Source: an uncultured candidate division Zixibacteria bacterium (GTDB lineage: Bacteria; Zixibacteria; MSB-5A5; GN15; FEB-12). Taken from it: a stretch of 64,000 nt of DNA. The notes below the pieces were generated by a model, which saw only the letters and a list, made by a program, of their open reading frames with translations, ran no database searches and had not been told where the DNA came from. A program made the position numbers and the translations under genes. Positions 4,918-41,098 of the stretch are shown here, piece by piece; positions within the stretch are counted from its first letter, which is position 1, and each line of letters opens with the position of its first letter. Location: the NCBI GenBank assembly GCA_963735035.1, contig CAVTJJ010000006.1:384001-448000 (forward strand), read 5' to 3'.

Positions 4918-7900
4918 TTAGCTTTGAGTCGGTCCGTACTTCATGGCCGCCATCTGGCTGTAAAAATTCCAGCGGCGATCACAGTCCTGCTGCCCGAGAG
5001 CTACGAGCCGCTCGGCCCGCTCTTTGTCCTTGGCCAGCAAGGTCCGGAACCGGTTCTCGGCAAAAGCATATTCGCGGAACGGAATCGACGGCGCTTTGCA
5101 GTCGAGCTTCAAAGGATTCTCGCCCTTTTCCAGAAGCACCGGATTATAGCGATACAGCAGCCAGTGGCCGCTCTTGACCGCGATATCCTCACGACCCATG
5201 CCTAAGGCCATGTCGATACCGTGGGCGATACAGTGAGAATAAGCGATGATGATCGACGGGCCATCGTACTGTTCGGCCTCGACCATCGCCTTGACCGTCT
5301 GATTATGGCTGGAGCCCATGGCCACCTGAGCTACATAGACGTTGCCATAGGACATCATCATCATGCCCAGGTCCTTTTTCGGCATCGGCTTGCCGGCCGC
5401 AGCGAACAAAGCGGTGGCGCCGCGCGGAGTGGATTTGGACATCTGACCGCCGGTGTTGGAATACACTTCGGTGTCGAGCACCAGGACGTTGACGTTCTTG
5501 CCGGAGGCCATGACATGATCCAGACCGCCGTAGCCGATGTCATACGCCCAGCCATCGCCGCCGATAACCCAGACCGATTTCTTGACCAGGGAGTCGGCGA
5601 TTGATTTCAGGGTGCGCACCTTCTCGCTGCCGTTGAGTGAAACCAGTCGTTGCTTGAGAGCTTCAACCCGCTTACGCTGTTCCACTACGCCCGCCTGAGT
5701 CTTCTGATCGGCCTTCAGAATACCTTCATACAAATCCGGCACCAATTCTCTGGTGAGTTCAAGCGCGAACTCGTTGAGTTTGTCGGCCGTTAGTCTCATT
5801 CCGAAACCGAACTCAGCGTTGTCTTCGAAAAGCGAGTTGGACCAGGCCGGGCCGCGTCCGTCGGCATTCTGCGCATACGGCGTGGTCGGGAGATTGCCGC
5901 CGTAGATCGAACTGCATCCGGTGGCGTTGGCGCACAGGGCGCGATCACCGAACAACTGGGTCATCAACTTGATGTACGGTGTCTCGCCGCAACCCGAGCA
6001 AGCGCCGGAGAATTCGAACAACGGCTTGACGAACTGCGAGCCTTTGACGGTCTCGATGTTGATCAAGGCCTGATCGGTTTCCGGCAGCTTGTTAAGGAAG
6101 TAATCCCAGTTGACCGCTTCGGTCTTTCTCAGAGGCGCTTGCAACGACATGTTGATCGCCTTGCGCTCGGTCTTGTTGCCCTCGGCGTCCTTGGCGTAGG
6201 CCGGACAGGCATTCACGCAAAGTTCACATCCGGTGCAATCTTCGGGAGCGACCTGAAGTACATAGTACTTGCCCTTGAGAGGTTTGAGAGCCTCGACATA
6301 CTTGAACGTCGCCGGAGCGCCGGACAGATCTTCCTTTTCGACAATCTTCGGACGAATGGCGGCGTGCGGGCAGACGATCGAGCAGATGTTGCACTGGATA
6401 CAAACGTCCGGCTCCCAGACCGGAATGTCCACCGCGATGTTTCGCTTTTCGTACTGCGTCGTCGCCGTCATGTAGGTGCCGTCATCGGGGAACACCGACA
6501 CAGGGAGCTGATCGCCGCGTCCCGCGATGATTTCAGCCGTGACATTCTTGACGAAGTCCGGCGCGGAATCCGGCACGATCGGCGGACGTCGTTTGGTCGA
6601 AGTCACCCTGCTCGGAATATTGATCTCCCGCAGTCCTCTTCCCGGCGGCGTCGACCGCGGCGTAGTTCATCTTGACGACTTTCTCGCCCTTGTCGCCGTA
6701 AGTCTCATCGATCATGTGCTTGATCGCCTCGATCGCCTTTTCCTTCGGCAGAATGCCGGAGATGAGGAAGAAGGCGGTCTGCATGATCATGTTGATGCGG
6801 GCGCCCAGTCCGAGCTGTTTGCCCAGAGCGATGGCGTCGATCACATAGAACTTGGCTTTCTTGGCGATCAATTGCTCCTGGACTTCCACCGGAAGAGTAT
6901 CCCAGACTTTGTCCGGTTCGGTCATGCTGTTGAGCAGGAAGGTGCCGCCGGGGCAGAGCTTCTCGACCATATCGTATTTCTCGAGGAATGATTCGTTGTG
7001 GCAGGCCACGAACTGAGCCGACTTGATCAGGTACGGCTTGCGAATCTCCTTCTTGCCGAAGCGAACGTGCGATACGGTCACCGCGCCCGCTTTCTTGGAA
7101 TCGTACACGAAATAGCCCTGGGCGTAATTGTCGGTGTACTCGCCGATGATTTTGATCGAGTTCTTGTTGGCGCCGACGGTGCCGTCGGAACCGAGGCCGA
7201 AGAAAAGGCCGCGGAAGTCATTCCCTTCGAGATCAATCGAAGGATCCATCGAAAGCGAAGTGTGCGTTACATCGTCGACGATACCGACCGTGAAATGGCT
7301 CTTGGGAGTCTTCTCCTTCAGATTATCGAAAATGCCCTTGACCATCGAGGGATTGAACTCACTCGAACCGAGACCGTACCGCCCGCCTATAATCAGCGGC
7401 CGCTGAGCATACTTGACCCAGCCGTTATCCATGGCTTCGTTCAGAGCGGCCTGGACGTCGGTATACATCGGCTCGCCGACCGATCCAGCTTCCTTGGTGC
7501 GATCCAGGACGGCGATCCGCTTGACCGTCGCCGGCAGGGCCCGGGCAAACGCCTCAGCCGAGAACGGCCGATACAGGCGGACCTTGATCATCCCGACTTT
7601 CTCGCCGCGAGCAACCAGCCAATCGACCACTTCGTGAGTAGTCTCGGCTCCGCTGCCCATGATGACTACGACATTCTCCGCCTGCGGATGGCCGACGTAG
7701 TCGAACAGATGATAATGACGGCCAACGATCTTGGCGAACTTGTCCATCTCTTCCTGGACGATTTCCGGCGCGGCCAGATAGTACTTGTTGATCGTCTCAC
7801 GGTGCTGGAAGAAGACGTCGGGGTTCTGTGACGTGCCTTTGATCGTCGGACGATCGGGGGAGAGGGCCCGCAGTCGGTGGCTCTCGACCAGCTCTTGGGG

Positions 7901-8536
7901 CAACATCGCCCGCATATCATCGAAAGTGATCTCTTCGATCTTGGCAACTTCGTGCGACGTGCGGAAACCGTCAAAGTAATGCACGAACGGTACCCGGCTT
8001 CGCAATGAGGCGGCCTGTGTGATCAGGGCCATGTCCATGATGTTCTGCACCGAACCGGAGGCCATCAGGCCAAAGCCGGTGGAGCGGGTAGCCATGACGT
8101 CGGAATGATCGCCGAAAATCGAAAGGGCGTGGCTCGCCAGCGCCCGGGCCGAAACGTGAAACACGGTCGGCGTCATTTCGCCGGCGATCTTGTACATATT
8201 CGGAATCATCAGGAGAAGACCCTGCGAAGCCGTGAACGTCGTCGTCAGGCAACCGGTAGTCAGGGCCCCGTGGACGGCGCCCGAGGCGCCCCCTTCGGAC
8301 TGCATTTCCACTACCGTGGGGACGGTCCCCCAGATATTCTTCTCACCGCGCGCCGACTTGACATCGGATTTCTCACCCATGTCCGACGACGGGGTGATAG
8401 GGTAGATGGCGATAACTTCGTTGGTAGCATGCGCCACATGCGCCGCCGCTGTATTGCCGTCTATCGTGACCATCCGACGCTTGCCCGTTGATTTGAGCGT
8501 CTTGTCTGCGACTTTTTCAAGCGTCTGTTCTGTCAT
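4918..8536 (-). CDS. nifJ: pyruvate:ferredoxin (flavodoxin) oxidoreductase; one frameshift near 6640
   Basis: YPITPSS and GLGSDGTVG in ORF 6533-8536; two CxxCxxCxxxCP motifs, FEFSGACSGCGET and GGDGWAYDIG in ORF 4918-6606; the halves join by a 1-base indel. Confidence 0.95.
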
Positions 8537-15395: not shown

Positions 15396-16621
15396 ATGGT
15401 CCTGGGTTCCCTATTTCGCATCGCGTCCGGCGCTCTCTGGGCCAACAAGCTCCGCTCCGGATTGACTTTCCTGGGTGTCATTCTTGGTGTCACTTCGGTA
15501 ATGACCATAATGTCGTTTCTGCAGGGTGCCGTGGGAGAGATCGAGCGAGCTCTGGATTCGCTTGGCCCGTCGACATTCATGGTGGCCAAGATGATGTCGG
15601 TCTTCTCTGAGGAAGAGTTTTTGGAGAAGATAAAGCGGCGTCCGGTTTCTTTGCATACCGCGGATGTGATCGAGAGAGACTGTCAATTGTGTGAACTGGT
15701 CTCACCGAGACTTTTCGACCAGGCCCGCATAAGCTACGAGAGTCAGAGTCTCAGGCGTATCGACGTCATGGGCGGTACCTCCAATTTTATCGACATCGTT
15801 GATATCGAAGTTGGCCAGGGGCGGTTTCACTCCCACGAAGACGATATTTACAAGCGCAATGTGATTTTCATCGGCGACCTTGTCCGCGAGAATTTCTTCG
15901 AGGGTCGAGACCCGATTGGCAAAGATCGTCAAGCTCGGCGGTCAAAAATACACCGTCATTGGAGTCGCCAAGAAGCGTGGGACTTTGATGGGCGAAAGCC
16001 AGGACGATTTTGTCGTAATCCCGTTGTCCGCCTTCCTCCGCCAGTTCGGCGAGCCGGAGCGCAGGGGTACTTTCCTGACCATCAAAGCTGTTTCGGTCGA
16101 GAAGCTGCCAGAGGCGATGGACGAGGTCCGTCTCATTATGCGCACGTATCGCAAGGTGCCGTACAACGAACCGGATGATTTCGACATGGAGACAGCCGAG
16201 AGCATTTTGGAGCAACTTAACGCTTTCACCTTGATGTTTCGATTAGTCTTCATAGGCATTTCCGGAATCTCGCTGGTAATCGGCGGCATCGTCGTGATGA
16301 ATATCATGATGGTTTCGGTAACCGAACGAACGCGAGAAATAGGCATACGAAAAGTCGATCGGTGCCAAACAACGCCACATTCTCATCCAGTTCCTGTTTG
16401 AATCGGTGATGCTGACGTTTTCCGGAGGCGCCGTCGGTGTGGCTCTGGGGTTCATTATCGCAAAATCAGTCGCGCTCCAGTTCGACCTGAATATAGAACC
16501 GTCCTTGCTGGCCATCTGGTCCGGTCTGGGAGTGTCGACCGGGATCGGTTTGATCTTCGGCATCTACCCGGCCATGAAAGCGGCCCGCCTGGATCCGATA
16601 AAAGCCCTGAGCTACGAGTGA
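15396..16621 (+). CDS. MacB/FtsX-type ABC permease 1; frameshifts near 15921 and 16350
   Basis: NKLRSGLT, GGIVVMNIMMVSVTERTREIG and YPAMKAARLDPI lie in three frames; both breaks are at A-runs. Confidence 0.88.
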
Positions 16622-20617: not shown

Positions 20618-22060
20618 ATGAATTCACGAAGTAGTTTCACCTGGGTGGGATTGACAGTGCTATTTGCTCTCATTGTGACCGCCGGTGTGTCTCTGGCGGC
20701 TAACCCGGTCGATCAGGGGCTGACGGTTCGGGCGGGCGTGATTGTTTTCAATCGACCGGTCTTCGATACGGTATCTCTGGTCGAATTTCCCTTTGTCTTG
20801 ACGCGCGATCAGTTCGATTTCTACCGTCCGGACAGTTCTTCCGGGGCTTTGTTCGCGCGGATATTTGCGCAGGTCAATGTATATGGCGCCGACGGACGGC
20901 CGGTCGATTCCGCCAACACTTACTTTTCAGCAGGTGCGGTCGATTCAATCGACGCGCTCAGGCCCGCTTACAGCCTCTTCAATAGCCTTGTTATTGTCGC
21001 CCGACCGGGGATTTACTCGGCCCGCGTGACAGTTGTCGACGTGGTCAGCAAGCGGCAGGGCGAATGCTTTCTCGACCGTATCAATGTCGAAGCGCCGGTC
21101 AAAGATCGACTTTCAATGGGGGGGAAGTGTCTGGCCTTTCGAATCTCCTACGTGGGCGAAACGCCCGGCGTGGGTATCGGAGTACCGAGGAACGGTTACG
21201 AAGTACGGTGCAACCCGACGGGTGCATTCTCAACTCACGATACGACTGCGTCGTACTACGCCGAGGTGTACAACCTGAAATACGATTCGCGAGCGCCGTC
21301 AGATTTTGTGGTCACCAGCCAGATTCTCGACGACTCGAACAAAGTCTTTCGTGAGTTGGGCAGTCGCACCCGAGCGAAAGCGGGGACGTCGGCCGTAATT
21401 GCCGAAACCTTTTCGATCGCCGGATGGCCGGCCGGACGATATGATTTGCAGGTGACGGTTGCTGACCGCGTGTCCGGTGAAGAAGTCAGCTATGACTTTC
21501 CACTCATCATTGTAGCTCCCCAGATGGCAGCCGTAATCGCTCCGTCATCATTGTCCGAAGATGCTGATCCATGTGCGGGCCTCGATCTGGAAACGCAGCG
21601 CCGCCTGGTCTGCTATCTGCTGACGAGCCAGGAAAAGGATATCCTGAAGGGGCTGACTCCGGATGGCCAGCGCCTCTATATAGAGCGGTACTGGCAGGAG
21701 CGGGATCCCGATGTTACCACCAGGGTGCTCGAAAACCGTCAGCAGATGTATGAGCACTACCTTTACGCCAACAACTTCTTTTCGATTAGTGAGGGAAAGA
21801 CCGACGGTTGGTTCACGGATCGCGGTCGCGTCTTCATGGTTTATGGTCAACCGGACAAGCTGGAGGACTTTACCCACCCCTCTAACGAGTACCCTTACCA
21901 GGTCTGGTGGTATTATTCATTGAGGGATGGCAGCGTCTTCGTTTTTCAGGATTCCCGAGGGTTCGGGGACTTCAAGTTGGTGCATTCGAGCTATGCCGGG
22001 GAGTTGTTCAACAAGGTCTGGGATCAGGCCATCAGGGATGGTAGTTACGACGCTGACTAG
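20618..22060 (+). CDS. secreted GWxTD domain protein
   Basis: Signal peptide; YWQERDPD, GWFTDRGRVFMVYGQPD. Confidence 0.88.
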   Translation: MNSRSSFTWVGLTVLFALIVTAGVSLAANPVDQGLTVRAGVIVFNRPVFDTVSLVEFPFVLTRDQFDFYRPDSSSGALFARIFAQVNVYGADGRPVDSANTYFSAGAVDSIDALRPAYSLFNSLVIVARPGIYSARVTVVDVVSKRQGECFLDRINVEAPVKDRLSMGGKCLAFRISYVGETPGVGIGVPRNGYEVRCNPTGAFSTHDTTASYYAEVYNLKYDSRAPSDFVVTSQILDDSNKVFRELGSRTRAKAGTSAVIAETFSIAGWPAGRYDLQVTVADRVSGEEVSYDFPLIIVAPQMAAVIAPSSLSEDADPCAGLDLETQRRLVCYLLTSQEKDILKGLTPDGQRLYIERYWQERDPDVTTRVLENRQQMYEHYLYANNFFSISEGKTDGWFTDRGRVFMVYGQPDKLEDFTHPSNEYPYQVWWYYSLRDGSVFVFQDSRGFGDFKLVHSSYAGELFNKVWDQAIRDGSYDAD

Positions 22061-22085: not shown

Positions 22086-22125
22086 AAAAGCCGCCCGCCT
22101 CGTTGGAGACGGACGGCTTTGCTTT
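22086..22125. terminator. probable bidirectional terminator
   Basis: Hairpin AAAGCCGCCCG...CGGACGGCTTT between convergent genes. Confidence 0.7.
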
Positions 22126-22151: not shown

Positions 22152-22907
22152 CTATTTGCCACCCTCTGCCGGTTTGGCGGCGGTGTCGGTGTTCTGTGGT
22201 ATTGTAGTCGACTTAATAGAACGTTTGACCGGTACCGTGAAGCGGACACCTTTACCCTCGCCAGCCTGGAAAGTGAAGGACTTCTCGAGCTGCTTATCGA
22301 GAGCGGCCGGGAGAAGCTTCACTTCGCCGCTGGCACTCTGGCCGGCGCCGATCTTCTTAGGAAGCGAAATCTCGGCGTATTTGGGGATGTCGGCTATCAT
22401 GGTCAGTTCGATTTCTTTGTCCGAGACGTTCGTGATCGTGAATTTCATCCGATCGCGCACCTTCTCACCGAACTGCGATATGTCCAGCTTGTAGGGCTTG
22501 ACAATGACGGGGTAGGTCGAGTCCGGTCGCTGAATGACTTCGGCGACAATCGATACGTTCTTGTCCGGCTGACCTTCGTTTGTGACGATACGCGGCCGCT
22601 TGGTTACGCGCTGCGTGTACGCCTTGGTGCTGAAAATGATCTCAAGGGCAGTGCTGTCACCGACAGCAAGCTCCGATTTGTCCAACGGAGCTTTGGTGCA
22701 GCCTCACCCAGGCACCACTTTGTCGATCTTCAAGATGTCGTCACCACGGTTGTAGAGCCAGAAGACGTGGGAAATCTCGGAGTTCTGTGGAACGTATCCG
22801 AAATCGAATTCCATTTCGGACATTTCCATGCGCGGGGCCGCGACAACCGAAATAGCCGCCAGCAAGGCCAGCCCCACGGCCAGAACAATTACACTGAAGT
22901 TTCTCAT
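22152..22907 (-). CDS. secreted DUF1573/Ig-like protein with in-frame TGA (candidate selenocysteine at 22704-22706)
   Basis: ORFs 22704-22907 and 22152-22685 are in one frame and read KVVPG-TGA-GCTKAPL; FDFG and F.L.N.G..L.I DUF1573 pattern; 251 aa with read-through. Confidence 0.85.
22668..22693 (-). promoter_or_regulatory. candidate bacterial SECIS hairpin
   Basis: mRNA AAGCUCCG-UU-GGAC-AA-AU-CGGAGCUU; 8-bp perfect stem starting at the 11th nt after UGA; apical loop starts with G. Confidence 0.7.
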
Positions 22908-22950: not shown

Positions 22951-23673
22951 TCATTTTTCTTTTGTCGTAAATACAGGGCGGAAACTGAAGTCGCCGAACT
23001 GCATGGGAATTGATACCCTAATGATCTCGCCCTGGTTCCCACTCAAATCGATCGTAACGGAACCTTCGTAGAGAACTGCAGCATTATCCTTTCCTATCGT
23101 TATCCGTCCGACAATCGTCTTGCCCGCTTCAACCGAATCCGGAAGCACTAACACGATTCCGGGACCTGATTCTACCGGGCTTACCGATAGTTTCTCGGCG
23201 GTCCGGTTGGTAAGCTCAAAAGTACCCGACAATTCGACTTCCGGGCTGCCCGACAATTTCACATTTACGGGCGACCAAGAGACAGACGCCTGAAGCTTGT
23301 CCGGGGTTACTACATTTCCTTTGAGGACTATCTCATAAGGGAACGGAATGGAATCAAAATAGAGATAGGCGGACTGGCTCCGAGCGCCAGCAGAACCTCT
23401 TGTCTGCCAGTAAAATACGAGAGGCAGACTATCGCCGGGGGGGATGGTGTCCTGAATTTGGGGAACGACCAGACAACCGCATCCGGACTTTACGGAATTA
23501 ATTCTGAGCGTGTCGGTACCCACGGCATGAACCCAGATCTGATGCGTAACGGTCACGTTGGTCGTTACCTGACCGAAATCGAATTCGCCGCCATTGATTC
23601 TGAACTTGTCCTCAGCCCACGAAGACGTGGCAAGTAGAAGGCTAAGAGCGAATATGCGAACAGTAATAATCAT
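22951..23673 (-). CDS. secreted DUF1573/Ig-like protein (Cys paralog)
   Basis: Signal peptide; EFDFG; TLRINSVKSGCGCL. Confidence 0.8.
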   Translation of the reverse strand: MIITVRIFALSLLLATSSWAEDKFRINGGEFDFGQVTTNVTVTHQIWVHAVGTDTLRINSVKSGCGCLVVPQIQDTIPPGDSLPLVFYWQTRGSAGARSQSAYLYFDSIPFPYEIVLKGNVVTPDKLQASVSWSPVNVKLSGSPEVELSGTFELTNRTAEKLSVSPVESGPGIVLVLPDSVEAGKTIVGRITIGKDNAAVLYEGSVTIDLSGNQGEIIRVSIPMQFGDFSFRPVFTTKEK

Positions 23674-23797
23674 AATGTTGACTCGGTCGTATAACTTATT
23701 GCATCGAAGCGGGTTGGTCAAGGTCTTTCAACTGTTTTAGCTTGTTCTTAAACACCTGGCGTTCTAAGATTGATCGATTTAATCGAGTTGTAGATTT

Positions 23798-31940: not shown

Positions 31941-32771
31941 ATGACGTTGAAACATTACAAGACACTGACGGTGATCGTCGCTATCGCGATGCTGCCGGCT
32001 TGGGCGTTTGCGGCCAACAAGTTTGCGCCGTTAGCCGCCGTTGCGGGTGAAAACAATACCGTAGTCGTTCCTTTGTCGATTGCGAACGATGACGGTGTTA
32101 TTGCGATTGACATCCCGTTGAAATTTTCGGAAGGCGTGACTTTGAAGTCAGTGAACTTCGAAGGGACGCGAGTCGATTATTTCGATGCCAAACTTTCCCG
32201 GATTGACAACGACAAGCATACAGTCGTTATCGGCCTTATCCACCAGCTCAGTCCTGTGGCGAAAGATCCTCTCACGGCGGGTGAGGGACCAGTCGCCAAT
32301 TTGGTGTTTGAGGTCACAGATCCGTCCGTTACCGAAATCCGGATTGACAAGGACGTGACTTCCAGCCCGGCTCACGATCTGACGTATGTATATCATACGC
32401 GGTCGAACGCCGGAAGCTACGCTTTCGACGAAGCCCACCCGGACTTCCCGGGCGTGACTGTCGCCCTTGGTACGGTGACGAGTGCTCTGCCGACAGAATT
32501 TGCTCTGGAGCAGAACTACCCGAACCCGTTCAACCCGGATACCGAAATACGCTATGCTCTTCCGGTCGAATCCGATGTCGAGTTGAGCGTCTTCAATATC
32601 CTGGGTCAGATGGTAACGACATTGACGAGTGGCAGAATGCCGGCCGGTAATCATTCGATTACCTGGCATGGCACCGATTCCGACGGTGCTCAGGTGGCGA
32701 GCGGTATCTATTTCTACCGGATCTCTGCGAAGAATTTCTCAGAGACCAAGAAGATGATGCTGCTGAAGTAA
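31941..32771 (+). CDS. secreted cohesin-like domain + FlgD-Ig/T9SS-like C-terminal sorting domain protein
   Basis: Signal peptide; VVVPLSIAN..IDIPLKF; LEQNYPNPFNP..WHGTD..VASGIYFYR..KKMMLLK. Confidence 0.85.
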   Translation: MTLKHYKTLTVIVAIAMLPAWAFAANKFAPLAAVAGENNTVVVPLSIANDDGVIAIDIPLKFSEGVTLKSVNFEGTRVDYFDAKLSRIDNDKHTVVIGLIHQLSPVAKDPLTAGEGPVANLVFEVTDPSVTEIRIDKDVTSSPAHDLTYVYHTRSNAGSYAFDEAHPDFPGVTVALGTVTSALPTEFALEQNYPNPFNPDTEIRYALPVESDVELSVFNILGQMVTTLTSGRMPAGNHSITWHGTDSDGAQVASGIYFYRISAKNFSETKKMMLLK

Positions 32772-38817: not shown

Positions 38818-41098
38818 TCACACCGGCAGCACGGCCAGCATAAATTCCAGCAACTTCACTACGCCGATCTTGCCGCCGTCGCCGACTTCCAAAGGTGGCC
38901 CTACACACGACGGACACCCGTCCGAGCAGGGGCAGTGCGTCACATGGTGCAGGCTGGCTTCAAATAGTTGCTCCGATTCCGAATACAATTTCTCGGCGAG
39001 ACCGACTCCGCCCGGAATGTTCTCGTAAACATAAACAGTCGGTTGCTCGGTGAATGGCGCCCGGACCTGCGAAATCGACCGCAGGTCGCGCGCGTCGCAC
39101 ATCACCCAGAGCGGCGCAATCTTGCCCAAAATATTGGCCAGGCCGCGCAACGAGCCGCCGAATTGTGACCGCTGGAGCTTCAGGCGTTCCGGTATGTCGC
39201 CGGGGAAGGAATACCAGAAGGCGGTCGTGTGCATCTCCATCTCCGGCATTTTCAGATCGCCCGAGCCGATGTTCTCGTGGGTCTCGAACTTGATCTTTTT
39301 GAACATTACCGTCGTGCTAGTTAGGGAGACTTCGCCCACATAGCGGCGCGAGTCATCGAGAGTACGTTCTTCGTTGAAGATGTCCAGCACCTTGAGGTCG
39401 GTCTTGGTCTCGGCGTCGGTGTAGTAGTCGACCTTGACCTCTTTCACATACGCCTTGCGTCCTTCCCAGTCGAGATTGGTGACCTGGTACTGTTCGGCGC
39501 GGTGGAGATAGATCGCTTCGGGGTGAAGGAAGATCGGGGCGGAGAAATAGTCAACTTCGCCGATGACCTCGCAGTTTTTCGTTTCGTTCAGAATGACAAA
39601 ATTCTCCGGCGACGCTGACCGGAGCGAGACCTGTTGGGCCGGGTAAATTTCCGACGACCAATGATACCGCCCGGCGCTATGGCGCAGAATCTTCTCGCCC
39701 GCCAGGTAATCGAGAATCTTCCCGGTGTTGATGTCATCCAGGTACTCGTCTTCGTCGAATGGAAGTTCAAACGCCGCGCACTTGAGATGATTGGTCTTTA
39801 TGATCAGGTTGTCGGGATCGATAATTCCCGACTCCGGTGTGCGATCGGTGATGTATTTCGGTTCGGTGCAGAGGAATTGGTTGATGGCCGATGAATTCGC
39901 GACCAGAATCGTTAGCGACACCCCGGAACGCCGTCCAGCCCGCCCGGCCTGTTGCCAGAGCGAGGCGATTGAACCGGGATAGCCGACAATCACCGAAACA
40001 TCGAGCGAACCAATATCGATGCCGAGTTCCAGAGCGTTAGTCGATACAACTCCGGTGATTTCACCGGTTCGAAGGCCGTGCTCGATACGACGTCGCTCGT
40101 TCGGAAGGTACCCGCCCCGATATCCGGTGATATTGATTCCTGAGCCGAAATCACCCTTCAGCTCGCGCTGTAGATAGGTCAGCAGTATCTCTACGTAGAG
40201 TCGATAATGTGCGAACACAATGGTCTGCACTTTATGGCGAAGAATCAGCGCCGCGAGGTGGGCGGCTTCGTTGATCGAAGAACGCCGGATGCCCAGTTCG
40301 CGGTTGATCACCGGCGGATTATAGATAACGAAATGTTTCTCACCCGATGGCGCCCCGTTGTTGTCGACCAATGTCACCGGTCTGCCAATGATGCGTGACG
40401 CCAGATCGTCGGGATTGGCGATCGTGGCCGAACAACAGATAAACTGCGGATTCGAGCCGTAGAATTTACAGATCCGGGCCAAACGCTTTATCACATTGGC
40501 CAGGTGCGAGCCGAACACGCCACGGTACTGGTGGATTTCATCGATGACCACATACCGAAGATTCTCGAATAACTTAATCCACTTGGTATGGTGTGGGCAG
40601 AATTCCGGCGTGGAGCATGTCGGGGTTGCTGACCACTATGTGTCCGGCCGAGCGAATCAGGCGTCGGGCGGTCTGAGGTGTGTCGCCGTCGAAAGTGTAA
40701 GTCTTGATGTCAACTTCGAGCTCGGTGATCAGATCGTGAAGTTCGGAAAGCTGATCCTGGGAGAGCGCCTTGGTGGGGAAGAGGTAAAGCGCTCGGGCGT
40801 TTGAGTCGTTCAAAACCGTGTGAATTACCGGCAAGTTGTAGCAAAGCGTCTTGCCAGATGCGGTGGGGGTGACCACGACTACATCGCGGCCCTGTAATAC
40901 TTCTTCCACCGCCTTGGCTTGATGGGTGTATAGCTGCTCGATGCCCCGCTTTCTCAAACCGGCCACTAAGCGTCGATCTATATCTTCCGGGAAATCAACC
41001 AGTCGCGCCGCTTTGGGTGGGAAAGTCTTCCAGTGCGCAATGTTCCCCTTGATCTCGGGTGAGTCCCTCAGAAAATCAATGATTTGTTCGAGTGTCAT
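38818..41098 (-). CDS. DEAD/DEAH helicase with DUF1998 (Hrq1/MrfA/YprA-like); one frameshift near 40595
   Basis: TASGKT, PTKALSQDQ, DEIH, SAT, NALELGID, QAGRAGR, C-terminal CPCSDGCPSC. Confidence 0.92.

Follow-up and report, generated by a model that had tools for sequence, protein, structure and literature searches.

We analysed a 64,000-nucleotide (nt) stretch of contig CAVTJJ010000006.1 from an uncultured Candidatus Zixiibacteriota bacterium (assembly GCA_963735035.1, positions 384,001 to 448,000 of the forward strand; hereafter the window), which carries a gene of the DUF1573 family with an in-frame TGA. The gene occupies a single minus-strand frame, 22907..22152, whose sole interruption is a TGA at 22706..22704. 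In the list of open reading frames (ORFs) it is split at this codon into a 67-amino-acid (aa) piece, 22704..22907 (-), and a 177-aa piece, 22152..22685 (-), in the same frame. Reading through gives 251 codons followed by a TAG stop at 22154..22152, with the UGA as codon 68, and a product that reads MRNFSVIVLAVGLALLAAISVVAAPRM...KVVPG-U-GCTKAPLDKSELAVGDS..., the surroundings of the UGA being ...KIDKVVPG-U-GCTKAPLDKSELAVGDS..., where U is selenocysteine (Sec). A preliminary description of the window had already joined the two ORFs into one frame broken only by the TGA, and had compared the read-through product of 251 aa with a paralog of about 240 aa. Both points stood on the minus strand, the tandem paralog measuring 256 aa from its listed TTG and about 240 aa from an internal ATG. 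As set out below, the mid-gene TGA almost certainly encodes Sec in a predicted exported protein, judging from the sequences of the gene and its relatives.

The TGA was found to be conserved throughout the clade. A six-frame search recovered a relative of the window protein in 61/61 related genomes, and in 55 of these a match of at least 190 bits contained exactly one internal TGA; the position of the TGA was verified in 30 fetched loci. These 30 orthologous loci, one per genome with the window's own included, are the orthologs referred to throughout. All 30 carry TGA at the same alignment column, within the motif P-G-U-G-C-T-(K/Q)-A-P, and read in the same way through this codon they encode proteins of 241-274 aa. 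Their aa identity to the window protein is ~48-69%, with conservation on both sides of the TGA, including the downstream half on which the preliminary description had left its proposal to depend. The codon in this column is TGC in 27 and TGT in 11 of 38 Cys paralogs, in line with the alignment of TGA to Cys first noticed in the adjacent paralog, which reads ...RINSVKSG-C-GCL.... A further 79 named loci, nearly all from Candidatus Zixiibacteriota or mis-binned relatives, have the TGA form in 76 cases; these loci overlap the first genome set and are kin, and the counts are not independent events. Kinship notwithstanding, conservation of the TGA form across these genome sets excludes an assembly error or a recent nonsense mutation.

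The genome (six contigs, 3.6 Mb, 97% complete) has the complete machinery for Sec insertion, all components scoring above curated cut-offs. The selA gene (511 bits) adjoins selB (328 bits) at 290312-293537 of contig C6, and tRNA-Sec lies at 279334-279426 of the same contig (Rfam score 67.6 bits; ARAGORN call SeC(tca)). The selA-selB pair is ~93-116 kb upstream of the window, which is part of this contig. The selD gene (394 bits) is at 544546-545625 of contig C3 and contains an in-frame TGA of its own (...ACAG-U-ASK...), so that selD itself is a selenoprotein gene; selD is present in 59/61 related genomes. Thus selA, selB, selC and selD, the four genes that the preliminary description had singled out for a search, are all present.

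The read-through product is predicted to begin with a signal peptide that is cleaved off, to continue with two Ig-like (ASH/PapD-like) domains and to end in a disordered tail rich in Lys and Gly. Pfam assigned DUF1573 (PF07610) to residues 28-124 at 71.3 bits against a gathering threshold of 26.1 (E = 6.9e-20, profile positions 2-98 of 98), a single domain that spans the UGA; the HYDIN/VesB-like Ig domain, PF22544, was matched as well. A putative Sec-type signal peptide covers residues 1-23 (22839..22907, minus strand), with a hydrophobic N-terminus and probable cleavage at VVA/AP. In 30/30 orthologs a hydrophobic N-terminal segment is followed by (A/G)x(A/G)/(A/Q/E/V)P(R/L), a typical signal-peptidase site, which points to export via a cleaved signal peptide. 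An AlphaFold model built from the 30-sequence alignment had a predicted local distance difference test score of 91.3 and a predicted template modelling (TM) score of 0.80. It shows an N-terminal helix (residues 2-20) and two beta-sandwich domains, the C-terminal tail being disordered; U-G-C lies in domain 1, in the loop after strand 59-65. In Foldseek the top matches were HYDIN/ASH/PapD-like Ig domains, in agreement with the Ig-like protein foreseen in the preliminary description. The best bacterial match was 2qsv, an uncharacterised protein of Porphyromonas gingivalis W83 (E = 9e-10 over 225 columns). These structures share the Ig-like fold with the window protein, but TM-scores of ~0.35 over the whole model indicate that the arrangement of the domains differs, and they offered no clue to function. 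A sequence search of the PDB with the ortholog profile returned no match at E <= 1.

Two other readings of codon 68 were considered. According to one, the TGA is a true stop, whether in a pseudogene, through an assembly error, or between a 67-aa peptide and a 177-aa protein that restarts at TTG 22685. It draws on the public record, since a collection of 5.8 billion proteins holds the window gene only as a 177-aa fragment and the closest database relatives are 175-177-aa 'hypothetical proteins'; other genes of the window also appear to be split by indels, so the assembly has errors. Against it, TGA occupies the same column in 30/30 independent assemblies with the protein conserved on both sides, one Pfam domain crosses the stop, and the 177-aa piece would have lost the signal peptide along with half of domain 1. 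The TGA is followed by two hairpins confined to the Sec forms (see below), and the Sec machinery is complete. As a weak further point, no change at 22704-22706 or at 22653-22667 is listed for short contigs of relatives, drawn from three studies, with 12 further differences not displayed. We regard a true stop as very improbable. According to the other reading, the UGA is translated as a standard amino acid (Trp or Cys) through near-cognate decoding or a reassigned code. Among the 120 listed database homologs, four (e.g. P0004) have P-G-W-G-C-T together with the A-V-G-D-S of the Sec forms, which shows that TGA=Trp codes were applied to these genes in some pipelines. However, a paralog in the same genome (L023) apparently terminates at a TGA near its C-terminus, as expected of ordinary stop use, and the codon aligns with Cys, not Trp, in the 38 paralogs. 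The presence of tRNA-Sec, SelA, SelB and SelD and the confinement of SECIS-like hairpins (SECIS, Sec insertion sequence) to the TGA forms argue in the same direction, and we consider this reading slightly less probable still than a true stop. Decoding of codon 68 as Sec (22704..22706, minus strand; motif P-G-U-G-C-T) is accordingly the reading that we hold with high confidence from the comparison of these loci.

Downstream of the UGA, two hairpins abut within the coding sequence; their positions are numbered from the U of the UGA as +1. Hairpin 1 (H1; 22668..22693, minus strand) extends over +14..+39. Its 8-bp stem, AAGCUCCG/CGGAGCUU, pairs +14..+21 with +32..+39 (window 22693..22686 / 22675..22668), and its first base is the 11th after the UGA. 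This perfect stem had been described before, together with a short upper stem and a GGAC loop. The stem was confirmed; the upper UU/AA pairs and the GGAC loop also exist, though only weakly, and RNAfold leaves most of the 10-nt apex open. H1 is variable in sequence and conserved in its pairing. Across the 30 orthologs the alignment of the 84 nt surrounding the UGA is free of gaps, and over 10 pairs and 30 sequences 82.7% of cells are paired, as against 37-58% in slid-register controls; none of 500 shuffles reached the observed values. Three pairs change on both sides; in one of them, pair 27-44 (UA 9, AU 7, GU 5, GC 3), the covariation links the third base of an Ala codon with the middle base of a Glu/Val codon. 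The paired fraction is 0.83 in the Sec forms versus 0.42 in 13 close Cys paralogs and 0.36 in 26 distant ones. The covariation check thus showed retained pairing with two-sided changes, in the Sec forms only. The H1 region has a mean folding energy of -10.4 kcal/mol over the 30 Sec forms. In the window, a 71-nt stretch folds at -30 kcal/mol in RNAfold (z = -2.52 against 200 shuffles, one of which was as good), a modest value alone; it is the comparative data, not folding energy alone, that place the two-hairpin fold above chance.

Hairpin 2 (H2; 22653..22667, minus strand), the second hairpin of the preliminary description, follows immediately at +40..+54 as GCUGUC-GGU-GACAGC and encodes A-V-G-D-S. 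It is under the strictest selection of the two. In 30/30 orthologs it reads GCUGUC-GGY-GACAGC, with GGU (26) or GGC (4) in the loop as the sole variation. The codon entropies are 0, 0, 0.57, 0 and 0 bits, whereas 78 other conserved degenerate codon columns average 1.40, none of them falling below 0.25. The 76 named Sec forms vary only by a GGC loop (7) or by AGU as the last codon, where a G-U pair is preserved (4). Synonymous alternatives in H2 would break or weaken a pair, which indicates selection on RNA structure. The paired fraction is 1.00 in the Sec forms versus 0.46 in the close and 0.34 in the distant Cys paralogs, and the H2 region, with a stem of 6-7 bp, averages -9.0 kcal/mol across the 30 Sec forms. 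The Cys paralogs mostly have A-P-G-D-S in mixed codons and no H2 hairpin. Among the 13 close ones, Pro mostly stands where the Sec forms have Val, and the one that has Val uses other codons and has no hairpin. Because the paralogs read A-P-G-D-S with mixed codons, the Val of the Sec forms looks like a concession to the hairpin. Ten of the 120 listed database homologs, known from protein only, combine Cys with A-V-G-D-S; these may be Cys orthologs that retained Val.

We compared both hairpins with the signals of other Sec genes of the genome. In its selD and in two genes for thioredoxin-fold selenoproteins, the signal is one 7-bp hairpin per gene, whose loop (GUU, GGUC or GUC) starts at +24..+27. 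The E. coli fdhF SECIS has a GGUC loop. When the selD loci of 30 relatives were scanned, the apex triplet at +24..+26 was GUU in 24 and GGU in 5 of the 29 recovered, one locus being missed by the pattern; the stem covaries. The triloop is closed by a 6-8-bp stem in 24/29, and in the other five a wider loop surrounds the triplet. H2 looks like this hairpin (e.g. GCCAGC-GGU-GCUGGC in selD and GCUGUC-GGU-GACAGC in H2). They differ in position: the selD loop is at +24..+26 with no intervening hairpin, and the H2 loop is at +46..+48.

These comparisons suggest a mechanism in which the genome's SelA, SelB, SelD and tRNA-Sec would let the ribosome read the UGA of codon 68 as Sec, the signal being the two abutting hairpins, H1 and then H2, within the coding sequence. 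H2, with its 6-7-bp stem and a G(G/U)U triloop as in the SECIS of the clade's selD, would bind SelB. H1, 26 nt long, starting 10 nt after the UGA and ending where H2 begins, would be a structured spacer that is looped out. Its folding would bring the base of H2 to about where the selD hairpin starts (+17), at roughly the usual distance from the UGA.

The assignment of the two roles could be reversed, with H1 as the SECIS that binds SelB and H2 as an accessory element, either a roadblock or pause giving SelB time or a stabiliser of H1. The apex of H1 lies 18-20 nt after the UGA, a distance shared by the loops of selD and of the two thioredoxin-fold genes, and falls inside the published 16-37 nt rule, by which H1 would be the SECIS; it also covaries in the Sec forms only and has a GGAC loop in the window. 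On the other hand, the H1 apex is not conserved, GU occurring in 0/30 orthologs and GG in 13/30, with several loops lacking any G, whereas the apex of the selD SECIS is G(G/U)U in 29/29 recovered. It is H2 that has this selD shape and is the invariant element, and the RNAalifold consensus retains H2 and drops H1. We consider H1 the less likely site of SelB binding, and H2 probably the stem-loop that SelB recognises, given its shape and invariance. The preliminary description had taken the 8-bp hairpin for the SECIS. This holds in that H1 covaries at canonical spacing, but H1 is probably only half of the signal.

The published model of the bacterial SECIS (bSECIS) calls for a G-led loop of 3-9 nt, an upper stem of 4-16 bp, 16-37 nt between UGA and loop, and a minimum free energy <= -7.5 kcal/mol (PMC13188914, Fig. 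2); the passage of this 2026 review on bSECIS outside the consensus model states that they exist and describes none. The signal studied here resembles the model as a stem-loop within the coding sequence 3' of the UGA, with H2 contributing a small G(G/U)-led loop and H1 obeying the spacing; in the window, H1 has an 8-bp stem and a loop of 10 nt, or of 4 nt (GGAC) if the weak U-A pairs form. It departs from the model in having two abutting hairpins, both confined to the Sec forms, of which the invariant, selD-like one has its loop at 42 nt. A distant second DUF1573 Sec paralog, with the TGA in 13/61 genomes, has two hairpins of different sequence in the same layout, with the GGY of the conserved Gly codon again in the second loop. 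Because this paralog shares the layout with other sequences, the two-hairpin layout itself appears to be functional. The arrangement may represent a composite class of bSECIS, in which the GGY triloop of H2 lies ~22 nt beyond the consensus, H1 is an obligatory spacer, and Val is fixed by the need for H2; we put the odds of this at about even. If so, SECIS searches with a 16-37 nt spacing would systematically mis-assign or miss such genes, and the two-hairpin signal would be a concrete example of a bSECIS outside the consensus model. Literature searches, covering main texts only, found no earlier account of a two-hairpin SECIS or of the Zixibacteria DUF1573 subfamily.

Whether DUF1573 proteins with a U-G-C motif were already catalogued as selenoproteins had been left open in the preliminary description. 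They were. OS_HP2 (DUF1573/pfam07610, motif UGC) was first found in the metagenome of the Olavius symbiont (Zhang & Gladyshev 2007, PMC1976440, Table 2) and is entered as 'OS_HP2, pfam07610, UxC', with 2 Sec and 354 Cys sequences, in the Global Ocean Sampling study of 2008 (Zhang & Gladyshev, PMC2398784). The DUF1573 selenoprotein family is kept in review tables of 2022 (PMC9312934) and 2026 (PMC13188914). The window gene is thus a new, unannotated, clade-wide member of an already catalogued selenoprotein family, and the modestly novel element is the composite SECIS. Like OS_HP2, it combines PF07610 with a U-G-C motif whose Sec stands at the first Cys of a CxC pair, and like OS_HP2 it is a bioinformatic prediction only. 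It differs in being a 251-aa protein with two Ig-like domains that occurs across Zixiibacteriota, as judged from the published descriptions of OS_HP2. A literature search on DUF1573 found no functional study. Public protein sets record this gene, which is conserved throughout a candidate phylum-level group, either as a fragment of 175-177 aa or with Trp in place of Sec. The NCBI selenoprotein model for the DUF1573 family falls short of the gene, which a subfamily-specific hidden Markov model would recover.

Taking these results together, the locus is best explained as an intact selenoprotein gene of this Candidatus Zixiibacteriota bacterium (22152..22907, minus strand) that is decoded through a two-hairpin signal and whose product is exported, and we assign this explanation a probability of about 0.9. 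Several observations weigh against it. Besides the regular spacing of H1 and its omission from the RNAalifold consensus, the H2 loop begins 42 nt after the UGA, outside the published 16-37 nt. H2 is invariant and so offers no compensatory changes, its support being synonymous-site invariance only. The related genomes are kin, and the counts overstate independence. The best NCBIfam match, NF041425 (OS_HP2), reaches 63.3 bits and remains below its cut-off of 100; from this shortfall we take the window protein to form a separate subfamily, a relative of the modelled family and not a member. In a search of sequencing runs, at most 0.12 of the sampled words matched in any one run, and RNA runs were absent from the matches listed. 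Finally, no genes telling of function were found within ~20 kb of the Sec gene.

With regard to chemistry, U68 and C70 are the only Cys-type residues of the protein, so any chemistry must lie in this pair. CxC motifs such as CGC occur in redox settings, e.g. as the shuttle disulfide of Erv2 and in CGC peptide mimics of protein disulfide isomerase. The window protein shares with these the two chalcogen residues one Gly apart, the only such residues in the mature protein. It has no relation to them in sequence or fold, with Sec first and on a predicted exported Ig-like scaffold, and the comparison is an analogy only. We tentatively favour an extracytoplasmic redox site, in which the U-G-C pair would cycle between selenol/thiol and selenylsulfide. 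A bidentate site for a soft metal or a chalcogen would be a less probable use of the same pair. No copper-related Pfam family was present in the 36 neighbouring ORFs within ~20 kb, where the adjacent ABC-2 permease (PF12679) is non-specific, and a link to copper was dropped as a contextual clue.

Upstream, a tandem DUF1573 paralog with C-G-C at the aligned position lies 43 nt from the start of the selenoprotein gene (22951..23721, minus strand; PF07610, E = 4.8e-14). A further DUF1573 copy stands beside the Sec gene in 28 of the other 29 orthologous loci. A tblastn search with the tandem paralog matched 34/36 database loci, although the paralogs cross-match and a match does not prove a separate upstream copy. 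On the other side, a convergent gene encodes a GWxTD-domain protein (20618..22060, plus strand; PF20094, TIGR04514), a neighbour whose synteny is conserved, since a homolog adjoins the Sec gene in 29/30 orthologous loci, the window's own included. Between the two convergent genes sits a terminator-like hairpin of 15 pairs followed by a T-rich tail (22087..22120, minus strand), 32 nt past the TAG, recognised by consensus match only. Homologs of a neighbouring ABC ATPase were found in 12/30 loci, the window's own included, one match being only 37% identical. At a greater distance, the neighbourhood includes a MacAB-TolC-like exporter and another GWxTD gene.

The genome was also screened for other in-frame TGA codons, using a codon-usage score and a hairpin filter, which does not amount to a complete selenoproteome. 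Of 1218 candidates, 133 had a hairpin and 13 of those a nearby Cys; five were convincing, and the remainder are probably mostly false. The paralog L023, which has one TGA, was rejected as a Sec gene because this TGA is near the C-terminus and is probably a real stop. At least five Sec genes were thus recovered, namely selD, two for predicted secreted thioredoxin-fold proteins (W-U-T-W-C and W-U-P-Y-C) and two for DUF1573 proteins. This set of genes suggests that the Zixibacteria cell envelope is a site of selenium-based redox chemistry. The preliminary description had set the exported form apart from the classic cytoplasmic selenoenzymes. Exported selenoproteins are less unusual than this implies: two thioredoxin-fold selenoproteins with predicted secretion occur in the same genome, and the classic cases include periplasmic formate dehydrogenases and [NiFeSe] hydrogenases.

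The three additional genes found in this screen are all on contig C3. The gene whose TGA has its T at plus-strand coordinate 302016 (frame 301330-302328, minus strand) encodes a predicted secreted thioredoxin-fold protein, ...EFYTDW-U-TWC..., with a signal peptide and a C-terminal half resembling tetratricopeptide repeats; its one hairpin has 7 bp and a GGUC loop that starts at +27. The gene with the T of its TGA at 266435 (frame 265524-267074, minus strand) encodes a large predicted secreted W-U-P-Y-C protein, probably an exported selenoprotein, and has a single 7-bp hairpin, GAGCGCG-GUC-CGCGCUC, at +17..+33. The TGA at 489941 (L026/L165) belongs to the second DUF1573 selenoprotein, a frame of ~410 aa with a basic N-terminus followed by a hydrophobic segment. 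It reads G-T-U-G-C-T-A-A here, and the motif of the clade is G-(S/T)-U-G-C-T-A-A-V-L.

Three further genes of the window appear to be split, consistent with the earlier statement that all other breaks are indels, and in at least two of them the pieces overlap. They encode a pyruvate:ferredoxin oxidoreductase (4921-6606 and 6536-8536, minus strand), a MacB-type permease (15396-16178 and 15880-16401, plus strand) and a DEAD/MrfA-like helicase (38821-40551 and 40577-41098, minus strand). Each probably reflects an indel or frameshift, due to assembly error or real. Elsewhere in the window, a gene at 31941-32768 (plus strand) encodes a protein with a FlgD-Ig-like domain and a Por_Secre_tail, the sorting signal of type IX secretion, which hints at a type IX secretion system in this genome.

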